Positions 12,565-56,540 of a DNA stretch of 64,000 nt are shown here, in pieces. The first letter of the stretch is position 1, and each line of letters begins with the position of its first letter. Made by a program: the position numbers and the translations under genes. Origin of the DNA: an uncultured Actinomycetes bacterium. Lineage in GTDB: Bacteria; Actinomycetota; Thermoleophilia; RBG-16-64-13. The notes below the pieces were generated by a model, which was not told the DNA's origin, ran no database searches, and was given only the letters and a program-made list of their open reading frames with translations. Location of the stretch: assembly GCA_963784835.1 (NCBI GenBank), contig CAWASM010000007.1:14694-78693 (forward strand), in the 5' to 3' direction.

Positions 12565-12650
12565 CGTTTCTTGATAAGGGCAAACCTGCCGTGAGGCGGG
12601 GACGCAAAGCCATCGGACCCATTCGTTGATTATTGGGCAGCCGAGCTCCC
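12565..12650 (+). promoter_or_regulatory. c-di-GMP-I (GEMM-I) riboswitch aptamer
   Basis: AAGGGCAAACC-TGCC-GTGA-GGCG-GGGACGCAAAGCCATCGG at 12576..12617 reproduces the conserved GGCAAAC / GNRA-capped hairpin / GGACGCAAAGCC core. A second hairpin forms from TCGG-ACCCA...TGGG-CAG-CCGA. It lies about 250 nt upstream of the TasA-like gene. Confidence 0.85.
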
Positions 12651-12678
12651 GGGGAAGCGGGAGCGGGCTGCCTTTTTT
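12636..12678 (+). terminator. intrinsic terminator (expression platform of the riboswitch)
   Basis: GGCAGCC(12636-42)/GGCTGCC(12666-72) and GCTCCC(12645-50)/GGGAGC(12659-64) form the stem. A T6 run follows (12673-78). The 5' arm overlaps the 3' arm of aptamer helix P2. Confidence 0.8.
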
Positions 12679-12924
12679 GTTGTGCAGCGATTCCCGAGCT
12701 TAGGTGAATGCGCTGGGCCGAGGACAGGGGCGGGGGCGCTTCGCGAGCGAAAGTGAGGTGGTGCTTTTGGTTTGCACGTGCTGCGTTCGCGTCAACTCTG
12801 AATTTCGCGGCGCACTGCCAGGTACTTCAACGTCATGCACGCGAGCGGACCTAAGAACGCTGAGAGGTCGGACGGAGCGTCCTACGCCCAGCGAAAGCCT
12901 CTCGAAAAGGAAAGAGGAGGGATC

Positions 12925-13650
12925 GTGAAGAAACACTTCAGCAGGCGGTTCAAGGTAAAAGCCCTTGCACTCGGGGTTTCCATCATTCTCGTCGTGGTCC
13001 TCATCGCCATCGCCACCGGGGCGACCGGGGCCTACTTCAGTGACACCAAGAGCGGGACGGTCACCGGTGCCATGGGGACGATCCAGGTGAGCGCGACCGG
13101 GGGAACTGGTGGGAATAATCTCGACTTTAACTGGCCCAACATGTTGCCCGGTGTGCACTACACCACCTCGGTGACCTTCCAGAACAGCGGCAACAACCCG
13201 GAAGACGTCTATCTGAACTTCAACAACCTGACCGCGCTCAGCACGCTCAACACTAAGGGGACGTACGCGTCGGTGCACATCAAGGTCAATGGCACTCCGA
13301 CGTACGCCTATCTGAACCTGAACGACCAGAACTCGAGCGGCTTCCTGCCGCCGCGGCTCTTGCTCGTTTCTAACCTCATACCGAACGCGACCGGGACGAT
13401 GGTCTTCGACTTCGAGTACGCGTCGAAGTTGGCCACCCCGGAACCGGGAGGGGTCTTCAACCTGTATCCCATCTACGACAGCGATTCCTGGTATGAGGCG
13501 CACAGTGGCTACGCCGCGGGATACGGCCAGACCACTGCCCGTTCGGGCATCGACTTCGTAATGGGTCAGCACAACCAAGGTCTGCCGTACCAAATCCTCG
13601 CTACCCAGGTCGGCATATCCCCGGACGACACCGGTGGCTCAGCCGACTAA
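12925..13650 (+). CDS. TasA/camelysin-family secreted protein with SipW-type signal peptide
   Basis: GTG 12925 follows AGGAGG. After the TM segment comes GATGAYFSDTKSGTVTGAMGTIQVS (AYFSD motif), then a beta-rich body with LPG....TF.N.G. Confidence 0.8.
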   Translation: MKKHFSRRFKVKALALGVSIILVVVLIAIATGATGAYFSDTKSGTVTGAMGTIQVSATGGTGGNNLDFNWPNMLPGVHYTTSVTFQNSGNNPEDVYLNFNNLTALSTLNTKGTYASVHIKVNGTPTYAYLNLNDQNSSGFLPPRLLLVSNLIPNATGTMVFDFEYASKLATPEPGGVFNLYPIYDSDSWYEAHSGYAAGYGQTTARSGIDFVMGQHNQGLPYQILATQVGISPDDTGGSAD

Positions 13651-13760: not shown

Positions 13761-14612
13761 GTGAAAACGTCCAGAAGACTTGCACGAACTCTACTTCGGT
13801 GGCTCCTGCCGCTGATGGCCCTGGGCGTCATCGTGTCCGGCGTTCTCTTCCTCACGGGAGTCTTCTCGTACCAGATCTACATCATCCACACCGGCTCCAT
13901 GACTCCCACCATCCCGACCCGAAGCGCGGTCATCGTGCACGAAGGGCCGGTACAAGTCGGGCAGGTCGTGACGTTCCACACCGAGGGGGGCGTGGTCGCC
14001 CACCGGCTGGTCAAGCAGCTCCCTGACGGCACCTACCAGACCAAAGGCGACGCCAACGAGACTGTCGATGTCGGCACGATCGGAGCTTCCCAGATCATCG
14101 GGCCGGTGGTCGCTGCTCCGCGCAACCTCGGCTATTGGCTCGCTTACTTCAAGAGCCAAATAGGTCTCGGCTCACTGGCACTTGGGATTCTCTGTCTCTG
14201 GCTAATGTACTCGGTGCTGGTGGAGTTTGGCGCAGCTGGGGCCGCACGTCGCAGGAGTTGGACGAGACGACCCGGGACGAGAGTTGGAGCTGTGTTGGTG
14301 ATGGCTGGCCTGGCAGTTGTTCTCTTTGCCGGGACCGCCCAGGCCGACTTCGAGGCCCGGGTATCTGGGACGATGCGGGGAACCCTCGACCCATCCTTCG
14401 CCACATCAGACTCCACGACCACCACCGTACTTGATCCTACCGACGTCCCCGAGACGAGCAGCAGCACGACAGCCGGACCGACGACCTCGACCAGCGAGAC
14501 CACCAGCACCGAGCCGACGGAGCTCCCAGCAACCGAGCCCCCGACCACCGCGGCAACGGCTGGGCTGGACACGACGGCAACTGGGACCACGACGACCGAA
14601 GGCTACCAGTGA
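13761..14612 (+). CDS. SipW-type signal peptidase I (S26B) with long C-terminal extension
   Basis: The peptidase core is IIHTGSMTPTIPTRSAVIV....VGQVVTF......AHRLV.....TYQTKGDANETVD. It has a C-terminal TM, followed by a signal-peptide-like segment and a Thr/Ser/Pro-rich tail. Confidence 0.8.
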   Translation: MKTSRRLARTLLRWLLPLMALGVIVSGVLFLTGVFSYQIYIIHTGSMTPTIPTRSAVIVHEGPVQVGQVVTFHTEGGVVAHRLVKQLPDGTYQTKGDANETVDVGTIGASQIIGPVVAAPRNLGYWLAYFKSQIGLGSLALGILCLWLMYSVLVEFGAAGAARRRSWTRRPGTRVGAVLVMAGLAVVLFAGTAQADFEARVSGTMRGTLDPSFATSDSTTTTVLDPTDVPETSSSTTAGPTTSTSETTSTEPTELPATEPPTTAATAGLDTTATGTTTTEGYQ

Positions 14613-14723
14613 TCTAGTGGCTGACCGAGTAGCACAGGCGCTTGGACGTACGTCCGCGCGGCGGGTTGGCTGCCGGGCCCTCCAGTGCTGCCACACAGCC
14701 TCGTCGGTGCTCGGAGTAAGACC

Positions 14724-15548
14724 GTGACGGCCTCAAGGAAGATAGGCCGGGTTGTGATGCATTGGCTTCTGCCGCTCATGGCCCTGGGCATCGTGGTCTC
14801 GGCCGCTCTGTTCGTCACGGGCGTCTTCTCGTACAAGATCTACATCATCCACACGGGCTCCATGACTCCCACCATCCCGACCCGAAGCGCGGTCATCGTG
14901 CACGAAGGGCCGGTACAAGTCGGGCAGGTCGTGACGTTCCACACCCAAGCGGGCGTGGTCACCCACCGGGTGGTCGAGCAGCGACCTGACGGGACCTACA
15001 TCACCAAGGGCGACGCCAACGAGACCGTCGATGTCGGTAGCATTCGCGCTTCACAGATCGTAGGGCCGGTAGTGGCCGCACCGCGCAGATTGGGCTACTG
15101 GATCGCCTACTTCAAGAGCCCGGTCGGTCTCGCCTCGCTGATCATCGCTATCGTTGTCATCTGGCTCCTCTATTCTCTCGTATCGGAGTTCGGGGAGCGG
15201 CGCGCACCGTCCGACCAACCGGCATCGGGGCTCCGAGCAGCGGACGAGGCAGCCAATTCAAGAGCCAACCCCTGTGTGGTGGCAGAAGTCAACACAGGAC
15301 AGTCCATGCAAGACTATGCGCTGGACGCCGTGCCCCGCCGCTGTGCCCGCTATGCTGCCTCGAAGACCACGTCAAGGAGAGCAGCGGGAGACGCGCTGAA
15401 GTCGATGCAAGATGACGTTTGCGATGCCGTGCCCCGCCGCTGTGCCCGCTATGCTGCCTCGAAGACCGAGCTGAGCAGACGCGCCGCCAAGCCAGCCTCC
15501 AAGAGCGGGGACGGAACGACGGCCACGAGTATCCTCTTGGGCGACTGA
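14724..15548 (+). CDS. SipW-type signal peptidase I, tandem paralog
   Basis: The peptidase core is the same as the previous gene, with a 90-nt block identical at DNA level. The C-terminal tail is different and contains a 99-bp direct repeat. Confidence 0.8.
   Translation: MTASRKIGRVVMHWLLPLMALGIVVSAALFVTGVFSYKIYIIHTGSMTPTIPTRSAVIVHEGPVQVGQVVTFHTQAGVVTHRVVEQRPDGTYITKGDANETVDVGSIRASQIVGPVVAAPRRLGYWIAYFKSPVGLASLIIAIVVIWLLYSLVSEFGERRAPSDQPASGLRAADEAANSRANPCVVAEVNTGQSMQDYALDAVPRRCARYAASKTTSRRAAGDALKSMQDDVCDAVPRRCARYAASKTELSRRAAKPASKSGDGTTATSILLGD
15306..15467 (+). repeat. 99-bp-period direct repeat inside the SipW paralog 3' region
   Basis: The two units are 15306..15368 and 15405..15467. They share an identical 42-nt core (15327..15368 = 15426..15467) encoding AVPRRCARYAASKT. 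Confidence 0.9.
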
Positions 15549-16329: not shown

Positions 16330-17323
16330 CGGCCCTGCTGCCAGAACCCGATCTGTTCCCATACGCCTACGTGCGCCGAGAGGCCGTGCTTTCCAGTCAG
16401 ATCGAGGGAACTCAGTCCTCGCTCTCCGACCTATTGCTCTTTGAACTTGAGGGGGCACCGGGCGCACCCTTCGACGAGGTGGTGGAGGTCTCCAACTACG
16501 TCGCGGCGCTGGAGCATGGGCTTGCTCGCCAGGCCGAAGGTCTTCCGCTGTCCAACGGGCTGATCCGGGAGATTCACGCCCGACTGCTTTCGCGGGGGCG
16601 GAGCATTGGCAAGCAGCCGGGCGAGTTCCGTACCAGCCAGAACTGTATCGGCGGCACTCGACCGGGCAATGCTCAATTTGTTCCGCCGCCCCCGCAGGAG
16701 GTGGAGCCATGCATGGCAGCGCTTGAGCGGTTCATGCATGACCCGATGCGCCGGGGGCTCTCAGCAAAGCCGCCCTTGCCCATGTGCAGTTCGAGTCCAT
16801 TCACCCCTTCGTTGACGACAACGGCCGAGTCGGCAGGCTGCTGATCGCCCTCCTTCTGCATCATGACGGGGTGCTGCGGCAGCCGCTTCTGTACCTGAGT
16901 CTCTATTTCAAACAGAACCGGGCCGAGTACTACCGACTGCTGAACTCCATGCGAGATACGGGTGACTGGGAGGCCTGGTTAGACTTCTTCCTCGAGGGAG
17001 TGCGGGAAACCGCCACAGGCGCGGTCGACACCGCCCACCGATTGCTGGCCATGTTCCAGAAGGATCAGGAACTTGTTCAGGGCTTGGGCCGCGCTGCCGC
17101 CAATACGCTTCGCGTATTCGAAGCCTTACGGCATCGTCCCGTGGGCCATATCGATCATTTGGCGGGGCAGACGGGAATAGCCTATCCCACCGCTGCACGG
17201 GCCGTCGACGCTCTTGTAGGACTCGGGGTGTTGCACGAGCTGACTGCGCGACGGCGCGGGCGCGTATTCGCCTATGACGGGTCTCTGCGGATCCTGAACG
17301 AGGGAGGATCATCGGAGGCGTAA
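16330..17323 (+). pseudogene. Fic-family protein, N-terminally truncated and frameshifted near 16790
   Basis: REAVLSSQIEGTQSS...EIHARLL...PGEFRTSQN is in ORF 16371..16844. HPFVDDNGRVGRLLIALLL... and a winged-helix C-terminus are in ORF 16784..17323. No room is left for a normal N-terminus after the SipW stop at 16301. Confidence 0.7.
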
Positions 17324-19599: not shown

Positions 19600-20241
19600 C
19601 TATTCCGAATACGTGTAGCTCAGCACTGTCTTGCCATTCGGGTCAAGGACGGTCACCGTGTCGCCGTCGTTGTTCCAAATAGCTGACCCGCTGGCGCCCC
19701 AATAAAGGTCGCTTGCGGTGGTGGTGCCGGAGCCCGTGTGTAGGGTGAAGGTGTCACCTGCATCGAAGCTCATGTCGGGGAAGCTGTAGCGATGATTCGC
19801 CGCGTCCTCGACCACGTAGCCTCGAAGGCTGCTCGAGGTGGTCACCCGGAACACGATGTACTCCTCGTTCAGGTTGTTGTTGTCATCATTCCCAGGCGCG
19901 TCGTACTGCAAGGTCACAATCTCGAGCGGTCCTTCCTGCGCTGTCGACGGAGCTTCGGTGGTTGTTGTCGCCTCCGTTGTTGTGACCTTGGCGGTTGTCG
20001 CCGTTGTGGTAGTTCCCACAGGTGCCATCGTTGTCCCTGTGCTTGATTGCGTGGTCGTACTTTTCGCTTTCACCTGAGTGGAAGACGGGCTCATGCTAGT
20101 GCTGGACATCATGGCAAGCGGGTCACCTGTGGTCGGGGGGATTGTCGAGTCGCTGGCGCCACCACAAGCCGCACCGCTGAGGACGGTCAGCACCACCACG
20201 ACTGCTGCGCCATATAGAATCCTGCCGCCCCTGATCATGAT
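19600..20241 (-). CDS. lipoprotein with lamin-tail (LTD) domain
   Basis: The lipobox is LSGAACGG, followed by a Thr/Ser-rich linker. Then comes LEIVTLQYDAPGNDDNNNLNEEYIVFRV......YVVED....YSFP......DTFTLHTG......WNNDGDTVTVLD. Confidence 0.8.
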   Translation of the reverse strand: MMIRGGRILYGAAVVVVLTVLSGAACGGASDSTIPPTTGDPLAMMSSTSMSPSSTQVKAKSTTTQSSTGTTMAPVGTTTTATTAKVTTTEATTTTEAPSTAQEGPLEIVTLQYDAPGNDDNNNLNEEYIVFRVTTSSSLRGYVVEDAANHRYSFPDMSFDAGDTFTLHTGSGTTTASDLYWGASGSAIWNNDGDTVTVLDPNGKTVLSYTYSE

Positions 20242-20278
20242 CCTCTTCCTGCTGGTCTTCTGGCCTATCCCGCTGCCA

Positions 20279-20431
20279 CTACTTGTACTCGTGGTTCTCG
20301 GCAATCTTGTCCTCTGGGTCAAGTACTTTCATCATGTCGCCGTCGTGATCCAAGAAACAGGCGTGAACATACCTGTCACCGACATCGACTCCCACTGTCA
20401 TCTCGTTTTCATGGCCGGTAGCATTGCCCAT
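20279..20431 (-). pseudogene. possible IS110-family transposase N-terminal stub (50 codons)
   Basis: MGNATGHENEMTVGVDVGDRYVHACFLDHDGDMM resembles the VGIDV.K..h.a..ld..G start of IS110 transposases. A stop follows after 50 codons. Confidence 0.3.
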
Positions 20432-20666: not shown

Positions 20667-21251
20667 ATGGCGCGGCGCGTGTTCTTACTAGTACTGACCT
20701 TGACTTTTGTCGCTATCGCCCTGGTGGGGGTCACGGCCTGCGGCTCGAGCTTGGTTCCAGCGACCACGGCCGCGGCGCCGAGCGTCACCGCTACGTCCTC
20801 AACGACGTCGCTGGATGCCGGCGCTGCCACAACCGTTGGGGTGACAACCGCAGATACCGCGACTCAAGACGAGTACAAGGCCAAGATGTCGGCTTGGGTC
20901 ACGGGACCTCTCCAGAAGCTGGACACCAGCGTTTTCGATATCCCCGATCCAGCCAATGCGACCACCAAACAGATCGACGCCGTCGCCGCCTTCGTGAGTC
21001 AAGCCCAGGCGGCCCTCGATCAGCTCAAAGCCATCAAGCCCTCCGCAGAAGCGTCGGCCGCGCACAACCAGTACGTCAAGGCCTATGAGGACCTTCTCGT
21101 CGCGACCGAGAAGTACGTGAGCGCGATGCGCAGCAAGGACGCGAGCATGCTCGCGAGCATACAGCAGGCCATGTCGACCGCGCAGACGCAAATACAGCAG
21201 TCGATCGGCATCCTGAGGCCGATGATCGGGCTGACGCCGCCCACGACCTAG
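20667..21251 (+). CDS. hypothetical lipoprotein
   Basis: The signal/lipobox is LVGVTACGSS, followed by a helical Ala/Gln-rich body. Confidence 0.65.
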   Translation: MARRVFLLVLTLTFVAIALVGVTACGSSLVPATTAAAPSVTATSSTTSLDAGAATTVGVTTADTATQDEYKAKMSAWVTGPLQKLDTSVFDIPDPANATTKQIDAVAAFVSQAQAALDQLKAIKPSAEASAAHNQYVKAYEDLLVATEKYVSAMRSKDASMLASIQQAMSTAQTQIQQSIGILRPMIGLTPPTT

Positions 21252-21755
21252 TGAGGTCGCACCTGGTAGGGGCGATCTTGACAGGAGTCGGAGCGAACCT
21301 GGCGTTAGCCGCCAGCAAGGCCGTTGCGAGTGTGGCGCTTGCTCGCGGGCATGATCGGCAAGGACCACCGTTAGGCGCTTACCAAGCATCCACAAAGGCG
21401 TCATCATGAGGTGAGAGCGGTCGCCCGTGGGTGCTCAACCTACGCCCGGTGCTCAGGAACAGCGGGAGGGCCCCCTGGGTAGTCACGTCGGTACGAGCTA
21501 CGCAGCAGGTGGGGCGCCAGATGGATCGGCATGGGGACCAGAACGACAGCGCGCTTCAAGTCGTGCACGCCCAAGAAATGTAGCACCCATATGAGAAGCT
21601 CTCGCCGGAGCAGCATGAGGAACTTCTTCAGGGCCTCCTCATCGCGGCGCCGCGCGGGGGAGAGGCTATGATCGAGGTGCTGCACCAGTTGCTGCTCTGC
21701 CACGCGACCGCGGAGTTGCTGAGCGAGTGCGGATACGACGAAGGAGGCGACGCAA

Positions 21756-22364
21756 ATGACGATTCCCGTCCGCATCTTCTCTGACTACATCTGACCCTTC
21801 TGCTATGTCGGCACGGGCATTGTCGACAAGTTGAAGGAAGAATTCCCTCTCGAGGACACCTGGGTGAGCTATGAGATCCACCCCGAGACCCCGGCAGGAG
21901 GCGTGAGGCTCGAGCGTCTCTTCGGACCTGGCTACCGCGAGATGCAGATTGGCATAGCCCTGCGCTGCCGGGAACTCGGTCTTTCCTTCCAGCCTCCAGA
22001 GGTTCTCTCCAACTCGCGGCTGGCCGTTGAGGCCGCCGAGTTTGCCCGGGATGCCGGCAAGCACGATGTCTTTCATCGGGCGGTGCTGGCTGCCTACTTC
22101 GCGCAGTCTCTCGACATCGGTGACGCTGAGGTCTTGCGGGGAGTAGCTGAAGAGATCGGGCTGGACGGCGGGGCTCTGGCGGATGCTCTGGCCACCGGTC
22201 GCTACGCGGCCATGCGTGCGGCGGCCGAGGACGAGGCCCGCAACCTCGGCGTCACCGGCGTCCCCACATTTGTCTTCGAGGGACGCAGCCGTGTGGTCGG
22301 GGCCCAGCCTCTGGACTACTTCTGGCATCTGCTAAAGGCGAATCCGGTCGCCGCGGACGGATGA
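21756..22364 (+). CDS. DsbA-family (FrnE/HCCA-isomerase-like) thiol oxidoreductase with in-frame TGA at the first redox Cys position (candidate selenoprotein)
   Basis: ATG 21756 follows AAGGAGG. The gene reads MTIPVRIFSDYI-TGA(21792..21794)-PFCYVGTGIVDKL, then continues in the same frame as ORF 21831..22364 (...GVTGVPTFVFEG). Family members carry SD..CP(F/W)CY at this position. Confidence 0.65.
21806..21828 (+). promoter_or_regulatory. hairpin 11 nt downstream of the in-frame TGA (SECIS-like candidate)
   Basis: TGTCGGCA (21806-13) pairs with TGTCGACA (21821-28): 8 bp including one G-T. The 7-nt loop is CGGGCAT. Confidence 0.4.
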
Positions 22365-22744: not shown

Positions 22745-23424
22745 GTGGTGGGCTCGCTTGGAGTTCCGGTAAGGACGCCTGAAGACATAAGACGATTCCT
22801 CGGTAAACCCTCGCATCTCAAGAAGGGCTACTCTGCCTATGAACTGGCATGGAGTTGGCTGGAGGCGAACGGCATTCCCTCGCCGGTGAGGTCCGTTCTT
22901 GAGAGTTGTGACGTCTATCGCGGCGCGGCCTTCGATCTAGGCTGGTTCGAGAAGCCGGTTCGGCTGGGTACGCCGGGAAGGGATAGCCAGACCGATCTCA
23001 TGGTCTATCTCACCCTCTCGAATGGTACAGGCGTGATCGCCGCTGAGGGAAAGGTCGAGGAGCCGTATGAGATTTGGTAGGGGATTGGCACGACGGGAGT
23101 CCCACCAAAGAGGCGCGACTGAAAGATATTGCCGCTCAGCTCGGGCTAGACCAGGCCGACACTTACGACCTCCGCTACCAACTTCTTCATCGTACTGTCT
23201 CTGCGCTGCGGGAGGCAGATGACAAGGAGTGTCAGGAGGCTCTCATGCTCGTCCACTCATTCAGCGCGAGCCGCTCTCACCTCACGGATTTCCAGACGTT
23301 CGCCGAAAGGATGGGCATCAGTTGCGCCGCCGGGCAGGTGAGCGGACGCAAGAGGCTAACGGCGGGTGCGGGGCAGACAACGATTGACCTGCGTCTCGGC
23401 TGGGTCTCTGACAACGTTTCCTAG
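22745..23424 (+). CDS. hypothetical protein with PD-(D/E)xK-like motif (frameshift near 23075)
   Basis: ORFs 22745..23080 and 23074..23424 join into one protein. QTDLMVYL...VIAAEGKVEEP fits a D...E.K nuclease-fold signature. Confidence 0.45.
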
Positions 23425-23582: not shown

Positions 23583-24091
23583 CTGACTCTCGAGCCCACA
23601 TCGGGTGGGGGCAGGGGGGCGGTACGAAGTTCCTAAGGATGGGTGTCGACGGCCTGCCCGCGCCGGTGTTTTCCCCTCGCCGAAAGCTTTCGGCCTGTGG
23701 ACAGCGAAGCTAGGAAGCGGCCTGTGGCTCGCGGGGTCCCTTGTCCCGCCGTCCCAATGCGTTTGACCGCATCCACGCCTGCACCAGTCCGACACCGGCC
23801 TCTCTTTCGCCCAGGTCGTCCAGTGCTTCGGCGCGCTATCACGATGAGACGCTCAGCGAGAGCCCGCGCGGTGCGCCATGTGTTAGGACGGATTCGGGAA
23901 CTCCCGTCCTCTGGGCGTGGGGTGATGGGGTTCGTCGGGTGCCCCTCAGACTTTTTTCGTTCTGCAGCAGCAGATCGAAGGGACTTCCCCGCTGCAATCG
24001 GTTCGCCACAGGCTACCAAACGCAAGGATTTGGATAAGACGACCAGAACGTATTGCCGAGAGGAGCTTGTCTCGTCTGGTCGAGGAGGATC

Positions 24092-24733
24092 ATGAAGCCT
24101 GACCTACCCCCATACATTGTCCCAAGCCGCCGGGATGATCTTCGACGGCAGAGACGGCAGAGACAAGTGGGGAGGCGTCGTTTGGTCCTGGCCGCGTTCT
24201 TGGTCATTGTGGTTGTGGTCGTGGTGGCTTTGGCGGTCGCCTCGCCGGGCAGCAAGAAAGCCTCAAGCTCGGCCACGACTGCCAGCTTGGGCGCTGCGAC
24301 GACGACCTCGGCGACAGTTGCGCTGGCGAACGCACCCTTAACCTATAGCGCCGAACTCACCGGGGAGAATGAGACCCCCGCTGTTTCTACCTCTGCGAGC
24401 GGCACCCTGACCCTAACGGCGGCCGCCGACGGGTCCTCCGTGGATTACGTCCTCAAGGTTAGCGGGATCACGGACCTCACCGTTGCTCGCCTACATGAAG
24501 GCAAGGCGGGAGCCACCGGAGCGACCATTCTCACCCTCTACGACGGTCCCACGAAGACTGGGGCCTTCAGCGGAACTCTTACTGAAGGGTCCATCGCGGC
24601 GGCTGATTTTGTGGGTTCACTCGAGGGCAAGACTATCGCCGACCTGGTAGCCCTAACTGAGGCTGACTCCGTATACCTCAACGTGGGAACGAGCGCCCAT
24701 ACCTCTGGCGAGATCCGCGGGCAGCTCCAGTAG
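24092..24733 (+). CDS. CHRD-domain protein with N-terminal TM anchor
   Basis: ATG 24092 follows GAGGAGG. After the TM stretch comes LTGENETPAVSTSASGTLTL......VDYVLKVSGITDLTVARLHEGKAGATG. Confidence 0.75.
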   Translation: MKPDLPPYIVPSRRDDLRRQRRQRQVGRRRLVLAAFLVIVVVVVVALAVASPGSKKASSSATTASLGAATTTSATVALANAPLTYSAELTGENETPAVSTSASGTLTLTAAADGSSVDYVLKVSGITDLTVARLHEGKAGATGATILTLYDGPTKTGAFSGTLTEGSIAAADFVGSLEGKTIADLVALTEADSVYLNVGTSAHTSGEIRGQLQ

Positions 24734-26799: not shown

Positions 26800-27609
26800 T
26801 CATGTCACCGTCCCCACGATCATCCAGATAGCTATTAGCACTAGCAGGACGGCGAAGTAGGTTCTGAGAGTGCTCGGTCTCACCCGCACCGATAGCGACG
26901 AACCCAGCCGGCCCCCGACGAAAGCCGCGGCGGCAAGAGGCAGCGCGGCAAGGATGTCAAAGGACCCGGTGACGAGGTGTCCGGAAAGACCGCCAAGAGC
27001 GGTGAGAGCGACCATAAATGACGAAGTCCCGATGGCGATGCGCATAGGGACGCCGCCGAGTAGCACCATCGCCGGCATCTTGAAGATGCCTCCCGAGATT
27101 CCGATCATGCCGGCGATAAACCCGGCCACCGCCGTCACCGGCATGAGCCAGGGAAGTCGCACCACGTAGGTGTGAGCTCCCACGGTCCGCAGCCAATGCC
27201 CCCGGCGATGGCTCCAGGCGGTCTCCGTGGATGCGGTCTCTCTCTCGGTAGCCGGCCGCATCATGAAGAAGCTGGCCACGATGAGCACGGCGCCGAATAT
27301 GATCTTCAGCGCGTAAGCGTCGATGTAGTTGGCCAACAACCCGCCGGCGAAGGCGAGAGCGAAGGTCATCGGCTCGATGACCAGAGCGAGCTTCCAGTCG
27401 ATCGTCCTTCGGCGACGGTAGATGATGGCCGCGGAGATGCTTGTCGCAATGATCACAAAGAGGCTGATCGTCGCGGCGTCGTGCACACTCATCCCGAACG
27501 CCAGCAGTATAGGAACGTAAAGGACGCCGCCGCCTTGACCGGTGGCCGAGAAGGCCGTGGACGCCACGAGTATGGCAACGACGGCTACAGCGAGAGAGGT
27601 ACCACTCAC
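26800..27609 (-). CDS. TauE/SafE-family anion exporter
   Basis: Polytopic membrane protein whose two halves each carry G..GGG/ISGG..K.P..V motifs, typical of TauE/SafE. Confidence 0.8.
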   Translation of the reverse strand: MSGTSLAVAVVAILVASTAFSATGQGGGVLYVPILLAFGMSVHDAATISLFVIIATSISAAIIYRRRRTIDWKLALVIEPMTFALAFAGGLLANYIDAYALKIIFGAVLIVASFFMMRPATERETASTETAWSHRRGHWLRTVGAHTYVVRLPWLMPVTAVAGFIAGMIGISGGIFKMPAMVLLGGVPMRIAIGTSSFMVALTALGGLSGHLVTGSFDILAALPLAAAAFVGGRLGSSLSVRVRPSTLRTYFAVLLVLIAIWMIVGTVT

Positions 27610-28247
27610 TGACCTTGTGCCCCGGCTTCTCCACTATGTCGAAGTGAGGTGGCCCTTCTCTGATAGCCGGAACAAGGTATGCAGCATGGTTCCCCTTGAA
27701 CCACGCGAACGTACCGCTCGAAGACATACTCTCCGCAGCGCGAGCACTTGACTCTGCTGAACGAACCCTTGGGGGGCGAGTAGGCGTATTCGCCAAGCGT
27801 CTCGACCTTGAAGATCTGTTCGTCTGTCTGAGAGTCGATCCACTCAAGGGCCTGGGCCGTGACCTCGGCAGGGATTTGCGAGGGCTCGATGCCTCTGCGT
27901 CGGTAGGCAAAGAACTCGACCCCGTCGAATGCATCAAGGAATTCCGATCTTAGAGAAAAGCGTATCGCTCCCTTGCCGGGACGATAGAAGACAGCCGCCA
28001 GCTTGCCCCAATAGGTGCGCTCCATGAGAGACTTGCCGTAGGTGGCGCCGGTGGCGATCTGCAGGCCGTCCATGAGGCAGGTTTGCGGGTGCCCGATGCC
28101 CAACTCCGGGATCACGAACAAGCCGTGATCTTTCTCATGTGCGACATCCAGTTTCTGCATAGCAGTGATGCCCATATGGTAGCCAAGAGGCATGAACGGG
28201 CACCGGTGGCCGTGAAACTCGAATGCCCAATCAGGAGTCGTGATCAT
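27606..28247 (-). CDS. FmdE-family protein with C-terminal zinc ribbon
   Basis: The N-terminal part is FHGHRCPFMPLGYHMG......GIGHPQTCLMDGLQIATGATYGK. The C-terminus is CSRCGEYV.........CCIPC. Its stop overlaps the tauE-like start. Confidence 0.8.
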   Translation of the reverse strand: MITTPDWAFEFHGHRCPFMPLGYHMGITAMQKLDVAHEKDHGLFVIPELGIGHPQTCLMDGLQIATGATYGKSLMERTYWGKLAAVFYRPGKGAIRFSLRSEFLDAFDGVEFFAYRRRGIEPSQIPAEVTAQALEWIDSQTDEQIFKVETLGEYAYSPPKGSFSRVKCSRCGEYVFERYVRVVQGEPCCIPCSGYQRRATSLRHSGEAGAQGQ

Positions 28248-43612: not shown

Positions 43613-45058
43613 GTGACAATAGTCGATGATCTTGAACACATAGTTGGCTGCGAGAGGGTTTCCACCTCGGATGCCGTTTGTTTGAGCTATTCATTCAACT
43701 GCTTTGTCGGTAGAGACGTCGTGAGGAAGCCGGACATTGTCGTCATGGCTCAGAGTACCGAAGAGGTTTCGAGGATAGTGACGGCTGCCAACAAACACCA
43801 CGTGCCTATAACACCGAAGGGAGCTGTCGGCGCGGCGGGGACCGGAGGTCCTCTGCGAGGCGGGATCCTCCTTGATCTTGCCTTGTTGGACAAGATCGAT
43901 CTTATCGACCTGGACAACATGAAGGCAGTGGCAGAGGCGGGCTGCAGCTTCTTCAGGCTTTCGCAAGAGTTGTTCAAGAAGGGCCTGATGCTGCCCACGG
44001 CTCCTTACGGCCCCGGACCGACCGTCGCCGCATCGGCCATAACTCCGGTCAATGCCTACGGTGGGACCAAGTACGGGCCAAACATAAACCTCGTAGAGGG
44101 TTTCGAGGTCGTGCTTCCCACCGGCGAAATCGCAAGAGTCGGTTCCATGGCCTATGTTGACAGTGAATTTGGTCCCTACTACCGGTACATCACCGGTCCG
44201 GACCTGGTCGGGCTCTTCACCAAGGCGAACGGGGCATTCGGGATTGTCACCAAGGTAGCGTATAGGTGCCTTCACAGACCACCAAACTGGTCTTTCCACA
44301 CCTACTGTTGGCCGCTGGATAGATTAGGCGATGCCACCAAGGCATTGCTGTCAGGCATCGCCGTGGAGGTTTTCGACATTCATCTTATGGACAAATGGAG
44401 GCTCCAGATAGAGCCCGGCCCCGAATTGCCCGAGGGTCTCGGCTTTGCTCTCCAGTTCATGGTCAACGCGGAGAATGAACAGGAGCTGCGTGGCAAGGAG
44501 AAAACCGTCGAAGAGATATGCGCGACCCACGCCGGTACCTATCTCCCGGGCCACGGAGAGGACTTCTATAGCCAATGGCCGCCACCTTTCATCGGTCTCC
44601 GGAGGGCGGACACACTCTCTGAGAGTTCTGGCGATCTCACCAAGCCTCCCCGTCTTTACACCTTTCTCTTTGACGAGCTCATCTTTCCCGCCTCACAGCT
44701 ACCTCAGGTCTACGATCGACTAAGAGAGGACTGTAAGACGTACGGATTCTCGGACACCCCCTCTCACGTCGCGTTCAGCGGCTTCCCGATGAACCACCAC
44801 GTCATCACCGCGACCATCGGTATTGCGCTCGATGACAGCGACCGAGAGGTACTTCACCGGTTCCACGCGTGCCAGGCTGACTTCAGGAACTGGTTTGGCG
44901 AGAAGGGTGGGATGTTCCAATACAGGCTACCTCCCATGGTTCCTGACTTTGTCTGGACGAACCAGATGGACGCTTTCCATCTCCTCAGGCGCATAAAGGC
45001 CGTCCTCGACCCCAATGGCATCCTGAGCCCCGGAACATTCGAGCTATGCGAGTCGTAG
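43613..45058 (+). CDS. FAD-linked oxidase (GlcD-like, PCMH-type FAD binding)
   Basis: The N-terminal FAD-binding region reads PDIVVMAQSTEEVSRIVTAANKHHVPITPKG......GG.....ILLDL. The C-terminal part is oxidase-like. Confidence 0.75.
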   Translation: MTIVDDLEHIVGCERVSTSDAVCLSYSFNCFVGRDVVRKPDIVVMAQSTEEVSRIVTAANKHHVPITPKGAVGAAGTGGPLRGGILLDLALLDKIDLIDLDNMKAVAEAGCSFFRLSQELFKKGLMLPTAPYGPGPTVAASAITPVNAYGGTKYGPNINLVEGFEVVLPTGEIARVGSMAYVDSEFGPYYRYITGPDLVGLFTKANGAFGIVTKVAYRCLHRPPNWSFHTYCWPLDRLGDATKALLSGIAVEVFDIHLMDKWRLQIEPGPELPEGLGFALQFMVNAENEQELRGKEKTVEEICATHAGTYLPGHGEDFYSQWPPPFIGLRRADTLSESSGDLTKPPRLYTFLFDELIFPASQLPQVYDRLREDCKTYGFSDTPSHVAFSGFPMNHHVITATIGIALDDSDREVLHRFHACQADFRNWFGEKGGMFQYRLPPMVPDFVWTNQMDAFHLLRRIKAVLDPNGILSPGTFELCES

Positions 45059-45059
45059 G

Positions 45060-46262
45060 ATGGAGGACCTCACCAAGACGAATCTGAAGGACTTCAAGGG
45101 AGCCTGGACCGTGTGTTCTCAATGCTCCGCGTGCTACTACCGAGGGCCGGTGGTCCCGTTCAACTGGCGTGAGTTGCCGCCCCCCGAATGGTCATCGCCG
45201 GAGCATAGATGTCCATCTTTCGAGTACTTCAAGTTTCGGGCGTATACGGCCGTCGGCATCGGGAACTTGGCTGCGCTGGTTTTTGATGACAACGAGTTCC
45301 CGATTACAGACGATCTGGTGAAGATTGCTTACTCGTGTACCAGTTGCGGCGTTTGTGCAGAGATATGCCAACTCTTTCAGCCCCTCGTCGCGATATGGGC
45401 TCTGCGGGAAGAACTGGTACGTCGCGGAACCAGGCTCCCAGAACCTCTGGAGAAGGTGCACGACCGCATGGAGACGCGCGGGAACATATTCGGTGCCACG
45501 AAGTCATCCCGGGCTATCAAGGGAATTCCTGCCACAGGTGAGAACGTCTACTTCGCCGGTTGCACCGCGCGTTTCCGCGAACCGGAAGTCACCCAGACTA
45601 CACTGGCCGTCTTAAGGGCGGCAGGCATGGACATTGCCTACTTGGCCGGGAAGGAGATATGTTGCGGCTTTCTCGCGGGCCACGACGGTAACACCGAAGC
45701 GCTCGAACGGCAGGCCACTCGGAATATCGAGCGTCTGATCCAGGCAGGTGCCAAGCGGGTGATCGTGTCTTGTGCCCATTGCTACAAGATCATGAAGCTT
45801 GATTATCCTCTTATCGTGGGCGAGCTTCCTTTTGAGGTGGTTCATATCTCGAAACTCTATCAAGAGCTCATTGGCGAAAAGAAGATACGTTTGACGCAAG
45901 AGATTGAGAGAACGGTGACGTACCATGACCCTTGCTTCTTGGGTAGGCACTGCAAGATGTACGAGGAACCTAGGAGCGTCCTTGAAAGCATACCGGGAAT
46001 CAAGCTCGTCGAAATGGTCCGCAACCGGAGATGGTCCTATTGCTGCGGGTCCGGGGCAAAGATCACGTCGACGTGCTTTCCCGACTTCAGTGCCGCCATC
46101 GCAAAAGAGCGGCTGATGGAAGCCAAACAGGCGGCTGACACTATGGTGACGGCCTGCGCCTCATGCCTCTCTGTTCTTCATAGAGCGGCTCGAAAAGAGG
46201 CCGTTGATTTGGAGGTGCTGGACCTGTCCACTTTGGTGGCCCAGGGGATGGGGATCGAATAG
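45060..46262 (+). CDS. Fe-S oxidoreductase with CCG domains (GlcF/LutA/HdrD-like)
   Basis: The Cys clusters are CSQCSACY and CTSCGVCAEIC. There are two CCG-type motifs (EICCGF, WSYCCGSG). Confidence 0.75.
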   Translation: MEDLTKTNLKDFKGAWTVCSQCSACYYRGPVVPFNWRELPPPEWSSPEHRCPSFEYFKFRAYTAVGIGNLAALVFDDNEFPITDDLVKIAYSCTSCGVCAEICQLFQPLVAIWALREELVRRGTRLPEPLEKVHDRMETRGNIFGATKSSRAIKGIPATGENVYFAGCTARFREPEVTQTTLAVLRAAGMDIAYLAGKEICCGFLAGHDGNTEALERQATRNIERLIQAGAKRVIVSCAHCYKIMKLDYPLIVGELPFEVVHISKLYQELIGEKKIRLTQEIERTVTYHDPCFLGRHCKMYEEPRSVLESIPGIKLVEMVRNRRWSYCCGSGAKITSTCFPDFSAAIAKERLMEAKQAADTMVTACASCLSVLHRAARKEAVDLEVLDLSTLVAQGMGIE

Positions 46263-46336
46263 ATGTGTGAAGTACTCCGCCCAACCGCACGCCCGGGCGA
46301 ACGTCATTGCCCGGATAGCCGGATTAGCTTAGTGCC

Positions 46337-47083
46337 ATGTCGGAAGTAGAAAGGAATACGGGAGAGAGCAGCATGATTGACGAGACGGACCTCACGGGTG
46401 AAAAACAGTGGTTCTATGATGTGAAAGTTAAACAAGTAATCAAGAATCTTACGAAACGCAACATGTGCGGGCAGTACGTTCCCGGGCGCAAAGAGGCGCT
46501 TGCGGCTGTTATGGAGATGATCCCGCCTGGTGCTAGTGTCGGACAGGGGAATTCAATCAGCGTTCAACAGGTTGGGGTGTTCGAAGAACTCAGCAAGCGC
46601 GGTCAGAACAGAATCATTGAGTACATATATGTTGCAACTTATGAGCCTCCCGTGCACACACCTGAGGAGAGTTTTACGATAGAACGAGAAGTATTCACTG
46701 CGGATGTCTTTTTGAGCGGCACTAACGCAATTACTCTAGATGGTGTGCTAGTTAACACTGATGGTATCGGGAATCGAGTGGCGCCCATGATTTTTGGACC
46801 GAAGAAGGTAATTATCGTGACAGGCGTCAACAAAATCGTCAGAAACATAGAAGAAGCGCTGGACAGAGTGCACAATGTGGCTGCGCCGCTGAATGGCATT
46901 CGGCATCACATAAAACACAACTTCCCGGAGACTGCCGAATTGGCGTGCGTAAAGACCGGCAAGTGCAGCGATTGCAGTCATCCGGGCAGGATGTGCCGCA
47001 GCACGGGCATCATCGAGGGAAGCGATTTCCGGCAAAAGGGCCGTATCAACGTAGTCCTGGTCGGTGAAGAACTCGGGTTCTAG
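46337..47083 (+). CDS. LUD-domain (LutC/YkgG-like) protein
   Basis: TADVFLSGTNAITLDGVLVNTDGIGNRVA..IFGPKKVIIVTGVNKIV is typical of the lactate-utilisation LUD fold. The C-terminus carries a CSDC..P..C cluster. Confidence 0.65.
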   Translation: MSEVERNTGESSMIDETDLTGEKQWFYDVKVKQVIKNLTKRNMCGQYVPGRKEALAAVMEMIPPGASVGQGNSISVQQVGVFEELSKRGQNRIIEYIYVATYEPPVHTPEESFTIEREVFTADVFLSGTNAITLDGVLVNTDGIGNRVAPMIFGPKKVIIVTGVNKIVRNIEEALDRVHNVAAPLNGIRHHIKHNFPETAELACVKTGKCSDCSHPGRMCRSTGIIEGSDFRQKGRINVVLVGEELGF

Positions 47084-47678: not shown

Positions 47679-49140
47679 GTGCTGAAGATGGTCGACGTGG
47701 AGTTCATCAAGAAGAAGCATGAGATCGAGGGCTGGCCGATCCGCAAGATCGCCCGGCAGCTCGAGGTCTCCAGGCAGACGGTGCGCAGGGTGCTGGCCTC
47801 CCCGGCTGAGCCGCCCCGGTATGAGCAGAGGGTTGCTCGTTCGCAACCGGTCATGGGCCCGTATCTCCCGGTCGTCGAGCGCTGGCTCATCGACGACGAG
47901 ACCGCGCCCCGCAAACAGCGTCACACCGCCCATCGCATCTACGACCGCCTGGTGGCTGAATACGACTTCCCCGGATCCGAGGTGACCGTGCGCCGGGCGG
48001 TCCGCGCCCTTCGGGGCCGACGCGTGGAGATGTTCGTGCCCTTGGAAGCGGTGCCGGGCAAGGTGGCCCAAGCTGACTTCGGTCAGGCTCACATGCTGAT
48101 CGCCGGCTGTGTGCAGAAGGTCTTCATCTTTTGCCTGCGGGCCAAGCATTCCAAGGTGCCCTTTGCCGCTGCTTATCCCACCGAGAAGCTGGAAGCCTTT
48201 CTGGATGGTCACGTCCGGGGTCTCGAGTTCTTCGGCGGCATCTTCCGGGAGATCTGGTATGACAACCCCAAGACCGCCGTCACCAAGATCCTTTCTGGGC
48301 CGGAGAGAGTCGAGCACGAACACTTCAGCCGCCTGCGGGCCCACTACCTGTTCGATAGCTCCTTCTGCACCCCCGGAGAGGCTCACGAGAAGGGCTCGGT
48401 GGAGAACCTGGTCGGATACGTGCGCAGAAACGCTCTGGTGCCGGCGTCCAAGCCCTTCGCCAGCCTCGAGGCCCTGAACGCTCACCTACTTGCCTTCTGC
48501 GAGCGGGAACGGGTCCGCCATGCTGAGGCTTGGGCTCTGGAGGAGTCTGCTCTTGGGCCCCTGCCTACCTACCCCTTCCGGGCCGCGACCTCCCGGCCGG
48601 TCTCGGTCTCCAAGACCGCCCTGGTCCGCATCGACCACAATCGCTACTCGGTCCCGGCCGTCCAGGCCGGCCGTCTGCTGCGCGCCGAGCTCTACGCAGA
48701 CAAGGTGGAGATCTATGCCGCCGCCACGCTCGTGGCCACCCATCCCCGCAGCTACCATCGCGACGAAAGCTTCCTGGATCTTGCCCACTATCTTCCTGCC
48801 TTCCAAAGAAAGCCCCGGGCGGCCGGCTGCTGCGCCGCTCTTCATCAGGCCGACCCGGTGTTCATCCGCGCCCGGGACCGTCTGCTCGCCGAACCCGGTG
48901 GATACCGGGTCTTCGCCGAGATCCTCATGCTAGGGCTGCGCTTTGATCTGGAGGTCCTGGCTGAAGCCCTCGGAGAGTGCCTGGCCTCCGGGAGACTCTC
49001 GGTCGAGGGTGTCCGCCAGCATTGTCTCAACCTCACTCACCCGGCGCCGCAGCATGTGGAGGTGCCTGAGTTCTTGGCCCTGCGGCTTCCCCGGCCGGAT
49101 CTTAGCCCGCTACGACACCCTGACGGCGGTGGCCCGATGA
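47679..49140 (+). CDS. istA: IS21 transposase IstA (1-nt indel near 49093)
   Basis: The N-terminal HTH is MVDVEFIKKKHEIEGWPIRKIARQLEVSRQTVRR. The DDE core has QADFG...... and WYDNPKTAV. The expected end, PDLARYDTLTAVAR-TGA (49138..49140), is in the frame of ORF 48943..49140. Confidence 0.85.
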
Positions 49141-49904
49141 ACTCAGAGGTCGTCGCCGCCCAGGTCAAGCTCTTTACCCAGGAACTTAAGATGCCGGGGC
49201 TGCGCACCCATTTCGAGGAGATCGCCCGGGAGGCAAGGAGCAACGGGGAGTCCCACGAAGCCTATCTGGTCGCGTGTCTGCGGGCCGAGATCGAGTCCCG
49301 GCGGGAGCACCGGCTGCAGGATCGCCTAAAACAGGCCCGCTTCCCCCACCGAAAGACGCTCGATGAGTTCGACTTCACCCTGGTCCCCTCCGTCCCCAAG
49401 GAAGAGGTCCTTGGCCTGGCGGGAGCCGAGTTCGTCCGCGCCCGGGAGAACGTCATCCTCTTAGGAGCAAGCGGCACCGGCAAGACACACCTTGCCCAGG
49501 CCATCGGCCATGCCGCCATCTACGCCGGCGCTCGGGTCCGCTTCACGAGCGCGGTCGCGCTGGCTCAAGAACTGCTCGCCGCTCAAGACGAGCATCGGCT
49601 GCCTCGCTATCTTAGGAGCTGGCAGAAGACCGATCTGGCCATCGTCGATGAACTCGGATATCTGGGCCTGGGGCCGGGAGGCCCCTTGCTCTTTCAGTTC
49701 TTCGCCGAGCGCTACGAGAAAGGATCGGTGCTCGTGACCTCCAACCTGGAGTTCTCGCGTTGGAGCGAGGTCTTCGGAGATCCGGTGCTCACCGCGGCCC
49801 TTCTCGATCGACTGACCCACCACAGTCATATCCTGGTGTTCGAAGGGGAGTCCTACCGGTTCCGGGAGAGCCAGAAGCAGAAGACGAGATCTCAGGCGAA
49901 GTGA
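49137..49904 (+). CDS. istB: IS21 helper ATPase IstB
   Basis: ATG 49137 lies in an ATGA overlap with the istA stop. Walker A is LLGASGTGKTHLA and Walker B is LAIVDELGY; also VTSNLEFSRW. Confidence 0.9.
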   Translation: MNSEVVAAQVKLFTQELKMPGLRTHFEEIAREARSNGESHEAYLVACLRAEIESRREHRLQDRLKQARFPHRKTLDEFDFTLVPSVPKEEVLGLAGAEFVRARENVILLGASGTGKTHLAQAIGHAAIYAGARVRFTSAVALAQELLAAQDEHRLPRYLRSWQKTDLAIVDELGYLGLGPGGPLLFQFFAERYEKGSVLVTSNLEFSRWSEVFGDPVLTAALLDRLTHHSHILVFEGESYRFRESQKQKTRSQAK

Positions 49905-50078: not shown

Positions 50079-50363
50079 GTGGCCCACACGCCAGAGTTCA
50101 GGCAGGAAGCCAGTGCGTCTCTACCGGGTGAGTCAGAGGGGCATCAGGTCCTGCGCCGCTCAGCTCGGGATATCGCTCGGCACCCTTCGCGCCTGGGTGC
50201 GCCAGGCCGAAGTCGATGAGGGTCTGCGGGAAGGCCTGACCAGCCCCGAGCGAGCTGAGCTTCTGCGTCTTCGGCGTGAGGTCCGAAGATCCTGGAGGAG
50301 GAGAAGGAGATCCTCCGCAAGGCCGCGCTTTTCTTCGCCAGGGAGACCGATCGGCGCAAATGA
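50079..50363 (+). CDS. IS3 OrfA (HTH + leucine zipper), two frame changes
   Basis: [11 protein letters not shown], then [37 protein letters not shown]...[12 protein letters not shown], then [27 protein letters not shown]. The three pieces lie in three different frames. Confidence 0.7.
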
Positions 50364-51247
50364 AGTTCCGCCTGATCGAAGAAGAGAAGTCGCACCACAC
50401 GATCTCCCGTATGGCCCGCGTGCTTGGTGTGACCGCCGCGGGATACCACGCCTGGAAGAAGCGCCCGCCTTCTGCGCGCCTCCAAGAGGATGATCGCCTG
50501 AAGAGGCTTATCCAAGACGCCCACGAGCGCTCTCAGGGCATCTACGGCGCTCCGCGCATCCACGCGGAGCTTGTGCTGGCTCATGGGGAACACGTGGCGC
50601 GCAAGCGCGTGGCCCGCCTCATGACTGCACTGGGGCTGGAAGGCGTGTCAAGGAGAGGGAAGCGCCGGTCCAAGAAGGCTGAGGCCGAGATGCCGGCCGC
50701 TCCCGATCTCGTTCGTCGTCGCTTCACCGCCGGCGCCCCCAATGAGCTTTGGATCGCCGACATCACCTACGTTCCCACCTGGGAGGGCTGGCTGTTTCTG
50801 GCGGTGGTCATCGACGCTTGCTCCCGCCGCGTCTGCGGCTGGTCCATGCGTGACGACCTCAAGGCCGATCTTGTCGTCGATGCTCTGGGGATGGCCACCA
50901 CTCGCCGACGTCCAGGACCCGGCCTCATCCACCATTCGGACCGCGGGGGCCAATATCGCTCGCTGGCGTTCGGTCGGACCCTACGCGATTCGGGCATCCT
51001 TGCGTCGATGGGTTCACGGGGCGATGCCTTCGATAACGCCGCCTGCGAGAGCTTCATGGCCAGCATCAAGACCGAACTCACGAAGAGGAAGACCTTCAAG
51101 ACGAGAGACGAAGCCAGGCTGGCCGTCTTCTCCTACATCGAGGCCTTCTACAACCCCCAGCGCAGGCATTCAGCCCTCGGATATCTTTCCCCGATCGAAT
51201 ACGAGAAGATGCTCAAGGAGAATTGCATCGAGACTGTCGCGGTCTAA
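50360..51247 (+). CDS. IS3 OrfB integrase-core transposase
   Basis: The core motifs are [39 protein letters not shown] and [17 protein letters not shown] 50360 overlaps the orfA stop. Confidence 0.9.
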
Positions 51248-55387: not shown

Positions 55388-56540
55388 GTGGACTCACTCG
55401 ACAAGGACTACGCAGCGGGGCTCTTCCGGGGCTGTGAACCCCCCTGCCTCTCGCTCTACCAGCCGACTCATCGGCACCGTCCGGAAAACCAGCAGGATCC
55501 GATCCGGTTCGGGAACCTCGTGAAGGTACTAGAGGAATCGCTGCTGCAGAAGTATCCGAAGCGTGAGATCCAGACGCTCTTGGACCCCGTTCCTGGCATT
55601 GGCGGAAGACCGCGACTTCTGGGAGCATACCCTTGACGGACTGGCAGTGCTGGGGCGCAGAGGCGTGTTTCGAGTCTACAGGCTCCAGCGGCCGGTTGCC
55701 GAGTTGGCCGTCGTGGCCGATAGCTTCCACACGAAGCCTCTGCTGCGCATGCTTCAGTCGGCCGACCGCTACCAAGTCCTCGGCCTGAGCCGACAGGAGA
55801 TCAAGCTCTTCGAGGGTAACCGTGACTCCTTGGATGAGATCGAGCCGGCCCCCGGTGTCCCGCGGACGATCACCGAGGCGCTGGGGGGGGAATTGACCGA
55901 GCCACACCAGACCGTCGCCTCATACGGCGGCGTCGGCGGGTCGCACTCGGCCATGCACCATGGCCACGGTGGGAAGGAGTCTGAGGTGGACATCGACGCG
56001 GAACGCTTCTTCCGCGCCGTCGACCGTGGGATCCTGGAGCACCACTCCCGGCCATCGGCCCTTCCGCTGATCTTGGCGACGTTGCCGGAACATCGTCAGC
56101 TGTTCCACCAAGTCAGCCATAACCCGTTCCTGATGGACGAAGGCATCGATATCTACCCGGACGCCCTGCCTAGCGACGAACTCCGCCAGCGGGCCTGGCA
56201 GGTCATCGAGCCTCACTACCTGGAACGGCTGGACGCGCTGATCGAGGAGTTCGGCAGAGCAAAGGCCAAGGATCTCGGCGAGGAAGATGTGGCGCGCGTC
56301 GCCAAAGCGGTCGTTGCCGGGCGGGTCGCGACCCTGCTCATCGAAGCCGACCGCGAGATTCCCGGCCGGATCGACGCTGCGACCGGCGACATCGAGTTTG
56401 GGGACTTGGCGGACCCGGAGGTTGATGAGGTGCTCGACGACCTGGGGGAGTTGACCCTGAAGATGGGCGGACAGGTCGTAGTCGTCCCCACCGAGCGGAT
56501 GCCGACCAAGACGGGAATAGCCGCGATCTACCGCTACTAA
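55388..56540 (+). CDS. eRF1/Pelota-like protein (bacterial baeRF-type), frameshift near 55600
   Basis: N-terminus: CLSLYQPTHRHRPENQQDPIRFGNL. Middle domain: HGHGGKESEVDIDAERFFRAVDRGI, compared with eRF1 HGRGGQS...R....F.rkV. C-terminus: AVVAGRVATLLIE. Confidence 0.65.

Follow-up and report, generated by a model that had tools for sequence, protein, structure and literature searches.

A TGA codon at the redox centre of a DsbA/FrnE-type gene from an uncultured actinobacterium very probably encodes selenocysteine

How should a TGA codon be read that interrupts a DsbA-type gene exactly where the first cysteine of the CxxC motif is expected? The codon lies in a 64-kb stretch of DNA (hereafter the window) from a metagenome-assembled genome (MAG) of an uncultured Thermoleophilia/Gaiellales-like member of the Actinomycetota. 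The first-pass annotation, made from the letters alone, proposed that it encodes selenocysteine (Sec). The gene reads as described there: the ribosome-binding site AAGGAGG on the forward strand, the ATG at 21756, the in-frame TGA and the end of the same frame at 22364 are all in place (Table 1). From the ATG, 12 sense codons (MTIPVRIFSDYI) lead to the TGA, which is followed by PFCYVG, and the frame then stays open to the stop codon at 22362-22364, so that, as had been claimed, no change of frame is needed anywhere from 21756 onwards. Because an in-frame stop lies at 21720-21722 and no ATG, GTG or TTG occurs between it and 21756, this ATG is the only start codon 5' of the TGA.

Table 1 Features of the candidate selenoprotein gene and its neighbours in the window
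Feature	Position	Strand	Basis or remark
Shine-Dalgarno sequence AAGGAGG	21741..21747	+	direct reading; 8 nt before start codon
Full CDS, predicted DsbA-like (FrnE-type) selenoprotein	21756..22364	+	202 codons plus stop; Sec would be codon 13
TGA predicted to be read as Sec, replacing first (nucleophilic) Cys of CxxC	21792..21794	+	alignment to Cys homologues and FrnE; TGA in 76 of 80 genomes
Predicted U-P-F-C redox motif (TGA CCC TTC TGC)	21792..21803	+	Pro and second Cys invariant in 78 Sec forms
Possible extended lower helix (CCUUC/GAAGG plus GCU/AGU)	21796..21837	+	-18.7 kcal/mol; closest relatives only
Putative SECIS hairpin	21806..21828	+	5' arm 21806-21813, loop CGGGCAU 21814-21820, 3' arm 21821-21828
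Val169-Pro170 of GVTGVPTF loop	22260..22265	+	P170 invariant in alignment A1; aligns with TGVPFF of FrnE
True stop codon, also TGA	22362..22364	+	translation; structures 3' of it misfit SECIS model
Lamin-tail-domain protein	19600-20322	-	neighbour
Possibly secreted protein, no family	20667-21251		neighbour
Frameshift-split DUF6946 gene	22745-23424		neighbour
CHRD protein	24053-24733		neighbour
AAA/DnaB-like ATPase			neighbour
TauE and FmdE genes			neighbours

With Cys put in place of the TGA, the DSBA profile PF01323 spans the whole translation product (E=1.2e-28 for residues 5-192; score 100.7 bits, cut-off 25.6). The top match of the product in the PDB is Deinococcus FrnE (5cnw/5cp1, E=5.8e-22), with residues 3-186 of the query aligned to residues 12-208 of the chain. 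The full DsbA/FrnE-like domain that had been recognized from the letters alone is thus real. The next PDB matches are Streptomyces SCO1869 and a HCCA-isomerase-like protein; classical DsbA is only marginally similar (4pwp, E=8e-4). Among the NCBIfam models none is specific for the 202-residue protein, with sub-threshold matches only to a MJ0307 thioredoxin and to the Rcas_1661 family of thioredoxin-like (seleno)lipoproteins (NF041057), the latter rejected at 29 bits against a cut-off of 190.

The likeness to FrnE of Deinococcus radiodurans (5cnw, 5cp1, 5co3, 5coh, 5e59, 5xwh) includes an active site close to the N-terminus and the lack of a signal peptide. In the alignment the TGA falls on the first Cys of the FrnE motif CPWC (IWSDIACPWCYIG versus IFSDYI-U-PFCYVG), and TGVPFF of FrnE aligns with TGVPTF, the Val169-Pro170 loop, which we take to be the cis-Pro loop of thioredoxin-fold proteins. 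FrnE, however, has Cys rather than Sec and comprises 260 residues with a C-terminal extension, whereas the protein encoded in the window ends after 202 residues (...KANPVAADG) and the alignment after FrnE residue 208; the extension of about 50 residues is absent. The C-terminal tail of FrnE carries a second Cys pair, CxxxxC. No such pair is present in the window protein, in which Cys70 is the only Cys after Cys16 of the motif and the C-terminal region has none.

With the predicted Sec 13 residues from the N-terminus and no alternative start, there is no room for a signal peptide, which argues for a cytoplasmic protein of the FrnE/COG2761 type and against a periplasmic oxidase. Classical periplasmic DsbA (E. 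coli type) shares the thioredoxin fold with helical insertion, a CxxC-type centre and the cis-Pro loop, but its motif is CPHC, whereas the window protein would have UPFC. We rejected assignment to the periplasmic DsbA oxidases on these grounds, as the active site starts at residue 13. Judged from its sequence, the gene product is a predicted cytoplasmic DsbA/FrnE-type thiol-disulfide oxidoreductase with a U-P-F-C centre. By analogy to FrnE it may act in disulfide reduction or isomerisation, with Sec as the more reactive nucleophile, and a cytoplasmic reductase or isomerase role appears more likely than oxidase activity.

Homologues allow the site itself to be judged. In a protein search, nearly all close homologues (60-77% identity) were 160-176 aa long, covered ~78-82% of the query and started 3' of the CxxC, and a minority was full length with Cys at the site (CPYC, CPHC or CPFC; e.g., P0004, P0011, P0063 and P0084). 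The DNA of two relatives has TGA at the codon corresponding to 21792, and the JGI gene call P0003 (L002, 417-1049) shows Trp at the site, translated from a TGA. We then scanned one genome per GTDB species (species representatives) and obtained 80 loci: 76 carry TGA at this codon and 4 carry TGC/TGT, namely L035 and L046 (Smithella), L041 (Gaiellales) and L058 (Tumebacillus). The first-pass annotation had suggested looking for such Cys/Sec pairs, and they are clearly present, all the more so with 107 distinct Cys-form genes that a degenerate pattern search recovered from metagenomes, most of which belong to more distant DsbA/FrnE subfamilies with a different downstream peptide. In the Cys forms and in FrnE the site is the first Cys of CPFC, CPYC, CPHC or CPWC, in agreement with the proposed UxxC centre in which the TGA replaces the nucleophilic Cys.

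The genomes with TGA span at least four phyla (Actinomycetota, Syntrophales/Smithella, Nitrospirota and Bacillota). The closest relatives are uncultured Actinomycetota/Thermoleophilia/Gaiellales MAGs, many of them from 'MFD' assemblies; cultured Bacillota with the TGA form include Alicyclobacillus mengziensis (complete genome), A. ferrooxydans and Ferroacidibacillus organovorans. The peptide is kept on both sides of the codon (...[IV]FSDY[IV]-TGA-P[FY]CY[IV]G...), and among 78 Sec forms the Pro and the second Cys of the motif are invariant. Codons 5' of the TGA vary synonymously while S-D-Y-I is kept (Asp GAC 49/GAT 29, Tyr TAC 49/TAT 27, Phe TTT 42/TTC 27). A TGA at the same codon across phyla, within conserved flanking protein, speaks decisively against a sequencing error, a pseudogene and a protein that starts downstream.

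The notion that TGC/TGT in a Cys-type DsbA gene or pseudogene was misread in sequencing or assembly, or has only recently mutated to TGA, draws on the visible errors of this assembly, in which several genes are split by frameshifts. These errors are indels and not substitutions, as the first-pass annotation had stated and as the frameshift-split DUF6946, Fic and CheB/CheR genes confirm, but an error here would have to be a substitution that recurs in 76 independent genomes, complete genomes of cultured strains included, while the rest of the gene remains intact and under purifying selection. We attach a negligible probability to it.

A second alternative takes the TGA as a true stop that ends a 12-residue leader, with the DsbA domain translated separately, without its CxxC, from TTG 21831 or GTG 21864. 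Nearly all database entries of the clade are called in this way (160-176 aa), and no Sec machinery was found in the 64-kb window. Yet gene callers choose different starts in different relatives, and the codon at 21831 is a variable Leu codon (CTG 36, TTG 13, CTC 12, TTA 9, CTT 7 and CTA 1 among 78 relatives), i.e., it is not TTG in 65 of 78. TTG 21831 is therefore no conserved start, and the first-pass concern that translation might begin solely there is removed. Moreover, the 12 upstream codons, the UxxC and the ATG preceded by a ribosome-binding site are conserved across phyla, and a DsbA fold without CxxC would have no redox centre. Separate translation of the domain is accordingly very improbable.

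If the TGA is read as Sec, a selenocysteine insertion sequence (SECIS) is expected close to it. The stem of a hairpin, UGUCGGCA-CGGGCAU-UGUCGACA, begins 11 nt after the TGA, with 8 bp, a 7-nt loop and -8.9 kcal/mol. The published model of bacterial SECIS elements (bSECIS) comprises an apical loop of 3-9 nt on an upper stem of 4-16 bp, a G at loop position 1 or 2 with, as a rule, a G or U after it, a distance of 16-37 nt between UGA and loop, and a minimum free energy of at most -7.5 kcal/mol (PMC13188914). The window hairpin, which has G at loop position 2, then G, and a spacing of 19 nt, agrees with the model on all four counts (PMC13188914), so the compatibility claimed for its position was justified. 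All 78 Sec-form sequences conform to the geometry of the model, and 41 of the 78 also to its energy cut-off when only nt 13-42 are folded. A lower helix might extend the core in the closest relatives (Table 1); it also forms in L001, L003, L006, L009, L042 and L061, and not where Tyr replaces Phe, a pattern that hints weakly at a longer element.

Folding energy alone was rejected as evidence for the hairpin, as the stability of the 75-nt region is unremarkable (z=-1.4 against dinucleotide shuffles, 17 of 200 of which fold at least as well). Rfam returned no SECIS or tRNA-Sec match, neither in the whole window at gathering thresholds nor in 21700-21900 at E<=10; for the hairpin this result carries no information, since Rfam covers divergent bacterial SECIS elements poorly. 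The hairpin is thus not unusual by stability, and it is the comparative data that point to more than chance.

In a gapless alignment (A2) of the 78 distinct Sec forms, numbered from the U of the UGA, each of the six core pairs (17-35 to 22-30) forms in 97-100% of the sequences. Pairing overall amounts to 87.5% in the true register versus 14-47% with the 3' arm slid by 1-3 nt. Pair 22-30 changes from A-U to G-C in seven sequences (Nitrospirota, L049 and the actinobacterial L061), pair 18-34 from C-G to G-C in one (L080), and pair 16-36 is A-U in 24, G-C in 8 and C-G in 1, with few independent compensatory events in a stem that sits in conserved coding sequence. Synonymous sites within the stem are frozen in the Sec forms: Gly in the 5' arm is GGC in 76 of 76, Val in the 3' arm GTC in 76 of 77 and Ile ATC in 59 of 64. 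The Gly codon in the loop, two codons 3' of the stem Gly, varies (GGC 43/GGT 17/GGA 6/GGG 6), and the flanking Pro, Cys, Tyr, Leu and Lys codons do so freely, across lineages of very different GC content. In the 107 Cys forms, most of them from more distant subfamilies, the stem Gly codon is GGC 44/GGT 25/GGA 23/GGG 12, and only 7 of them can form all six core pairs, compared to 74 of the 78 Sec forms. Pairing with compensation, frozen synonymous sites and linkage to the TGA together argue, at the level of sequence comparison, for selection on the RNA itself.

The four Cys forms among the species representatives differ in what is left of the hairpin. Both Smithella loci, L035 (3037) and L046 (3031), retain it unchanged, which suggests that they are recent Sec-to-Cys conversions. 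The Gaiellales locus L041 (3037) has a different yet paired hairpin, with GGG...CUC for GGC...GUC, and in Tumebacillus L058 it is lost. Two actinobacterial loci, L018 and L020 (3037-3087), have Ala (GCG) for Gly (GGC) in the 5' arm, giving GUCGCGACGGGCAUCGUCGAC; a shift in register still allows their stem to pair, leaving a bulged U that recalls the fdhF SECIS of E. coli. The fdhF/fdnG SECIS elements of E. coli and the SelB pathway are the mechanistic paradigm of bacterial Sec decoding (summarised in PMC13188914). They share with the window hairpin the location within the coding sequence just 3' of the UGA, a stem that begins 11 nt beyond it and a G-containing apical loop, but there is no sequence similarity and no Rfam match, and the window hairpin lacks the bulged U.

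TGA also ends 19 of the 35 Pfam-supported genes in the window, this gene included, and is the commonest stop there. Recoding at 21792 therefore has to depend on context, and genome-wide reassignment of TGA is excluded. The structures 3' of the stop at 22362-22364 lack a G at loop positions 1 and 2 and are wrongly spaced. This bears on a third alternative, namely that the UGA is decoded outside the SelB/Sec system, through genome-wide reassignment to Trp or Gly or by hairpin-promoted near-cognate or Cys insertion. The Trp in the JGI call P0003 and the lack of any Sec machinery in the 64-kb window are compatible with such decoding, but besides the 19 terminating TGA codons it conflicts with a catalytic Cys site that alternates only with Cys codons, the classic Sec/Cys signature, with a hairpin that fits the SelB-type bSECIS model and with the spread of the clade over phyla with the standard code. 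It strikes us as quite implausible.

The genes needed for Sec decoding would be expected elsewhere in the source genome. No selA, selB, selD or tRNA-Sec was found within the 64-kb window (Pfam on ~50 ORFs, ARAGORN, Rfam); the only tRNA that ARAGORN detected there was tRNA-Thr, and 60 related loci yielded no tRNA-Sec. Regular expressions for SelD and SelB motifs gave no match in 203 sequences, and none of the Sec-decoding genes turned up beside the gene in ~200 related loci. A search of the window for a second selenoprotein (in-frame TGA with redox motif and coding-like flanks) returned only noise besides 21792.

All in all, we put at roughly 0.93 the probability that the gene truly encodes Sec, carries a functional SECIS and yields a DsbA/FrnE-type product. 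In the proposed model, translation would start at ATG 21756, and the mRNA hairpin, its G-rich apical loop placed 19 nt 3' of the UGA, would act as a bacterial SECIS that recruits SelB-GTP-Sec-tRNA(Sec) to the ribosome. Sec would be inserted instead of termination, and translation would run on to the ordinary UGA stop at 22362. Decoding would thus presumably be SelB-dependent, and the protein would be expected to be an active enzyme.

A 'DsbA-like protein' (COG2761, UxxC) was among the new bacterial selenoprotein families reported from the Sargasso Sea by Zhang, Fomenko and Gladyshev in 2005, with nine sequences and a predicted SECIS displayed (PMC1088965). Zhang et al. described it in 2006 in the genomes of Anaeromyxobacter dehalogenans, Desulfovibrio desulfuricans and Desulfotomaculum reducens (PMC1794560), and the 2016 survey of Peng et al. 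counted 45 genes in 41 organisms (PMC5029168). A 2026 review lists 'DsbA-like protein form 1, PF01323, UxxC' and describes such families as functionally uncharacterised (PMC13188914). All sequence-level defining features of this family are present in the window gene: the Pfam domain, the UxxC with Sec for the first Cys, widespread Cys homologues, and a bSECIS immediately 3' with a G in its small apical loop. Judged from the published family features there is no difference in kind, and the copy studied here comes from an actinobacterial lineage that the passages on this family in those papers do not name. It is a further member of a selenoprotein family known since 2005 and poses no new biological question. 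To our knowledge, selenium incorporation or activity has been shown for no member of the DsbA-like selenoprotein family.

The surroundings of the gene revealed no conserved operon partner, either upstream or downstream, in a comparison with the related locus L001: of the nearby genes the two have only CHRD in common, and the small ORFs on either side of the gene in L001 have no counterpart in the window. Among the neighbours, a gene of the TauE/SafE sulfite-exporter family (26800-27609) and one with an FmdE domain and a C4 zinc finger (27606-28247) overlap on the reverse strand. DUF6946 is split into 22745-23080 and 23074-23424 (profile positions 1-102 and 106-213), a Fic protein over two frames (16371-16844 and 16784-17323) and a CheB-CheR fusion likewise on the reverse strand (52965-54251 and 51331-53250); these splits are indel errors typical of long-read assemblies. 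Insertion sequences are represented by a 741-aa ORF (47679-49904, forward strand) that joins parts of an IS21-type transposase (HTH, Mu-transposase C) to IstB, and by an adjoining gene for an IS3-type integrase (rve; 50276-51247, forward strand). Since transposase and IstB are normally two genes, the 741-aa fusion is probably an indel artefact.

Further away, a c-di-GMP-I riboswitch (12569-12653, forward strand; RF01051, 55.5 bits, E=3.9e-08) lies just 5' of a camelysin-like Peptidase_M73 gene (12835-13650), near which two genes with weak signal-peptidase S26 matches occupy 13761-15548, an arrangement that points to a secreted or pilus-like operon under the control of c-di-GMP. At 55563-56540 on the forward strand lies a gene of baeRF family 3 (E=1.8e-51), which encodes a bacterial archaeo-eukaryotic release-factor-like protein; it is 34 kb from the Sec codon and has no visible link to it. 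A gene cluster at 43613-47083 (forward strand) encodes a GlcD-like FAD oxidase, a GlpC-like Fe-S protein with CCG domains and a LUD-domain protein. It shares a stretch of lower GC content (38-48 kb, 0.53-0.60) with an ABC transporter of the branched-chain amino-acid type. Sec forms of GlpC-like Fe-S oxidoreductases are known from other bacteria (PMC1794560), but the GlpC-like gene of this cluster contains no in-frame TGA.

The public gene calls for the clade (P0001-P0120) are almost all truncated N-terminally at arbitrary downstream starts, which is a systematic misannotation of a selenoprotein family. The correct annotation would be a 202-residue selenoprotein with Sec at codon 13, instead of a 166-177-residue fragment without active site, and nearly all public entries of the clade need to be corrected likewise. 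Because the SECIS core is strikingly uniform across four phyla, detection is simple, and the very strongly conserved element could be turned into a search pattern or a covariance model with which to find such genes. The gene also hints that soil Actinomycetota of the Thermoleophilia/Gaiellales type may use selenium, and Sec decoding and a need for selenium in this uncultured lineage would bear on metabolic reconstruction and cultivation.

It is tempting to speculate, though on balance we doubt it, that this FrnE-like subfamily is an almost obligately Sec-containing clade (~95% of species) with a near-identical SECIS core, UCGGCA-N5-7-UGUCGA, across Actinomycetota, Syntrophales, Nitrospirota and Alicyclobacillaceae. 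If so, the gene might have spread horizontally together with its SECIS, or be subject to an unusually strict SelB-SECIS constraint, which would also fix the peptide motif G-[TK]-G-I-V-D. Thermoleophilia/Gaiellales-like soil Actinomycetota would then be under-recognised users of Sec, whose selenoproteomes are hidden by N-terminal truncation.
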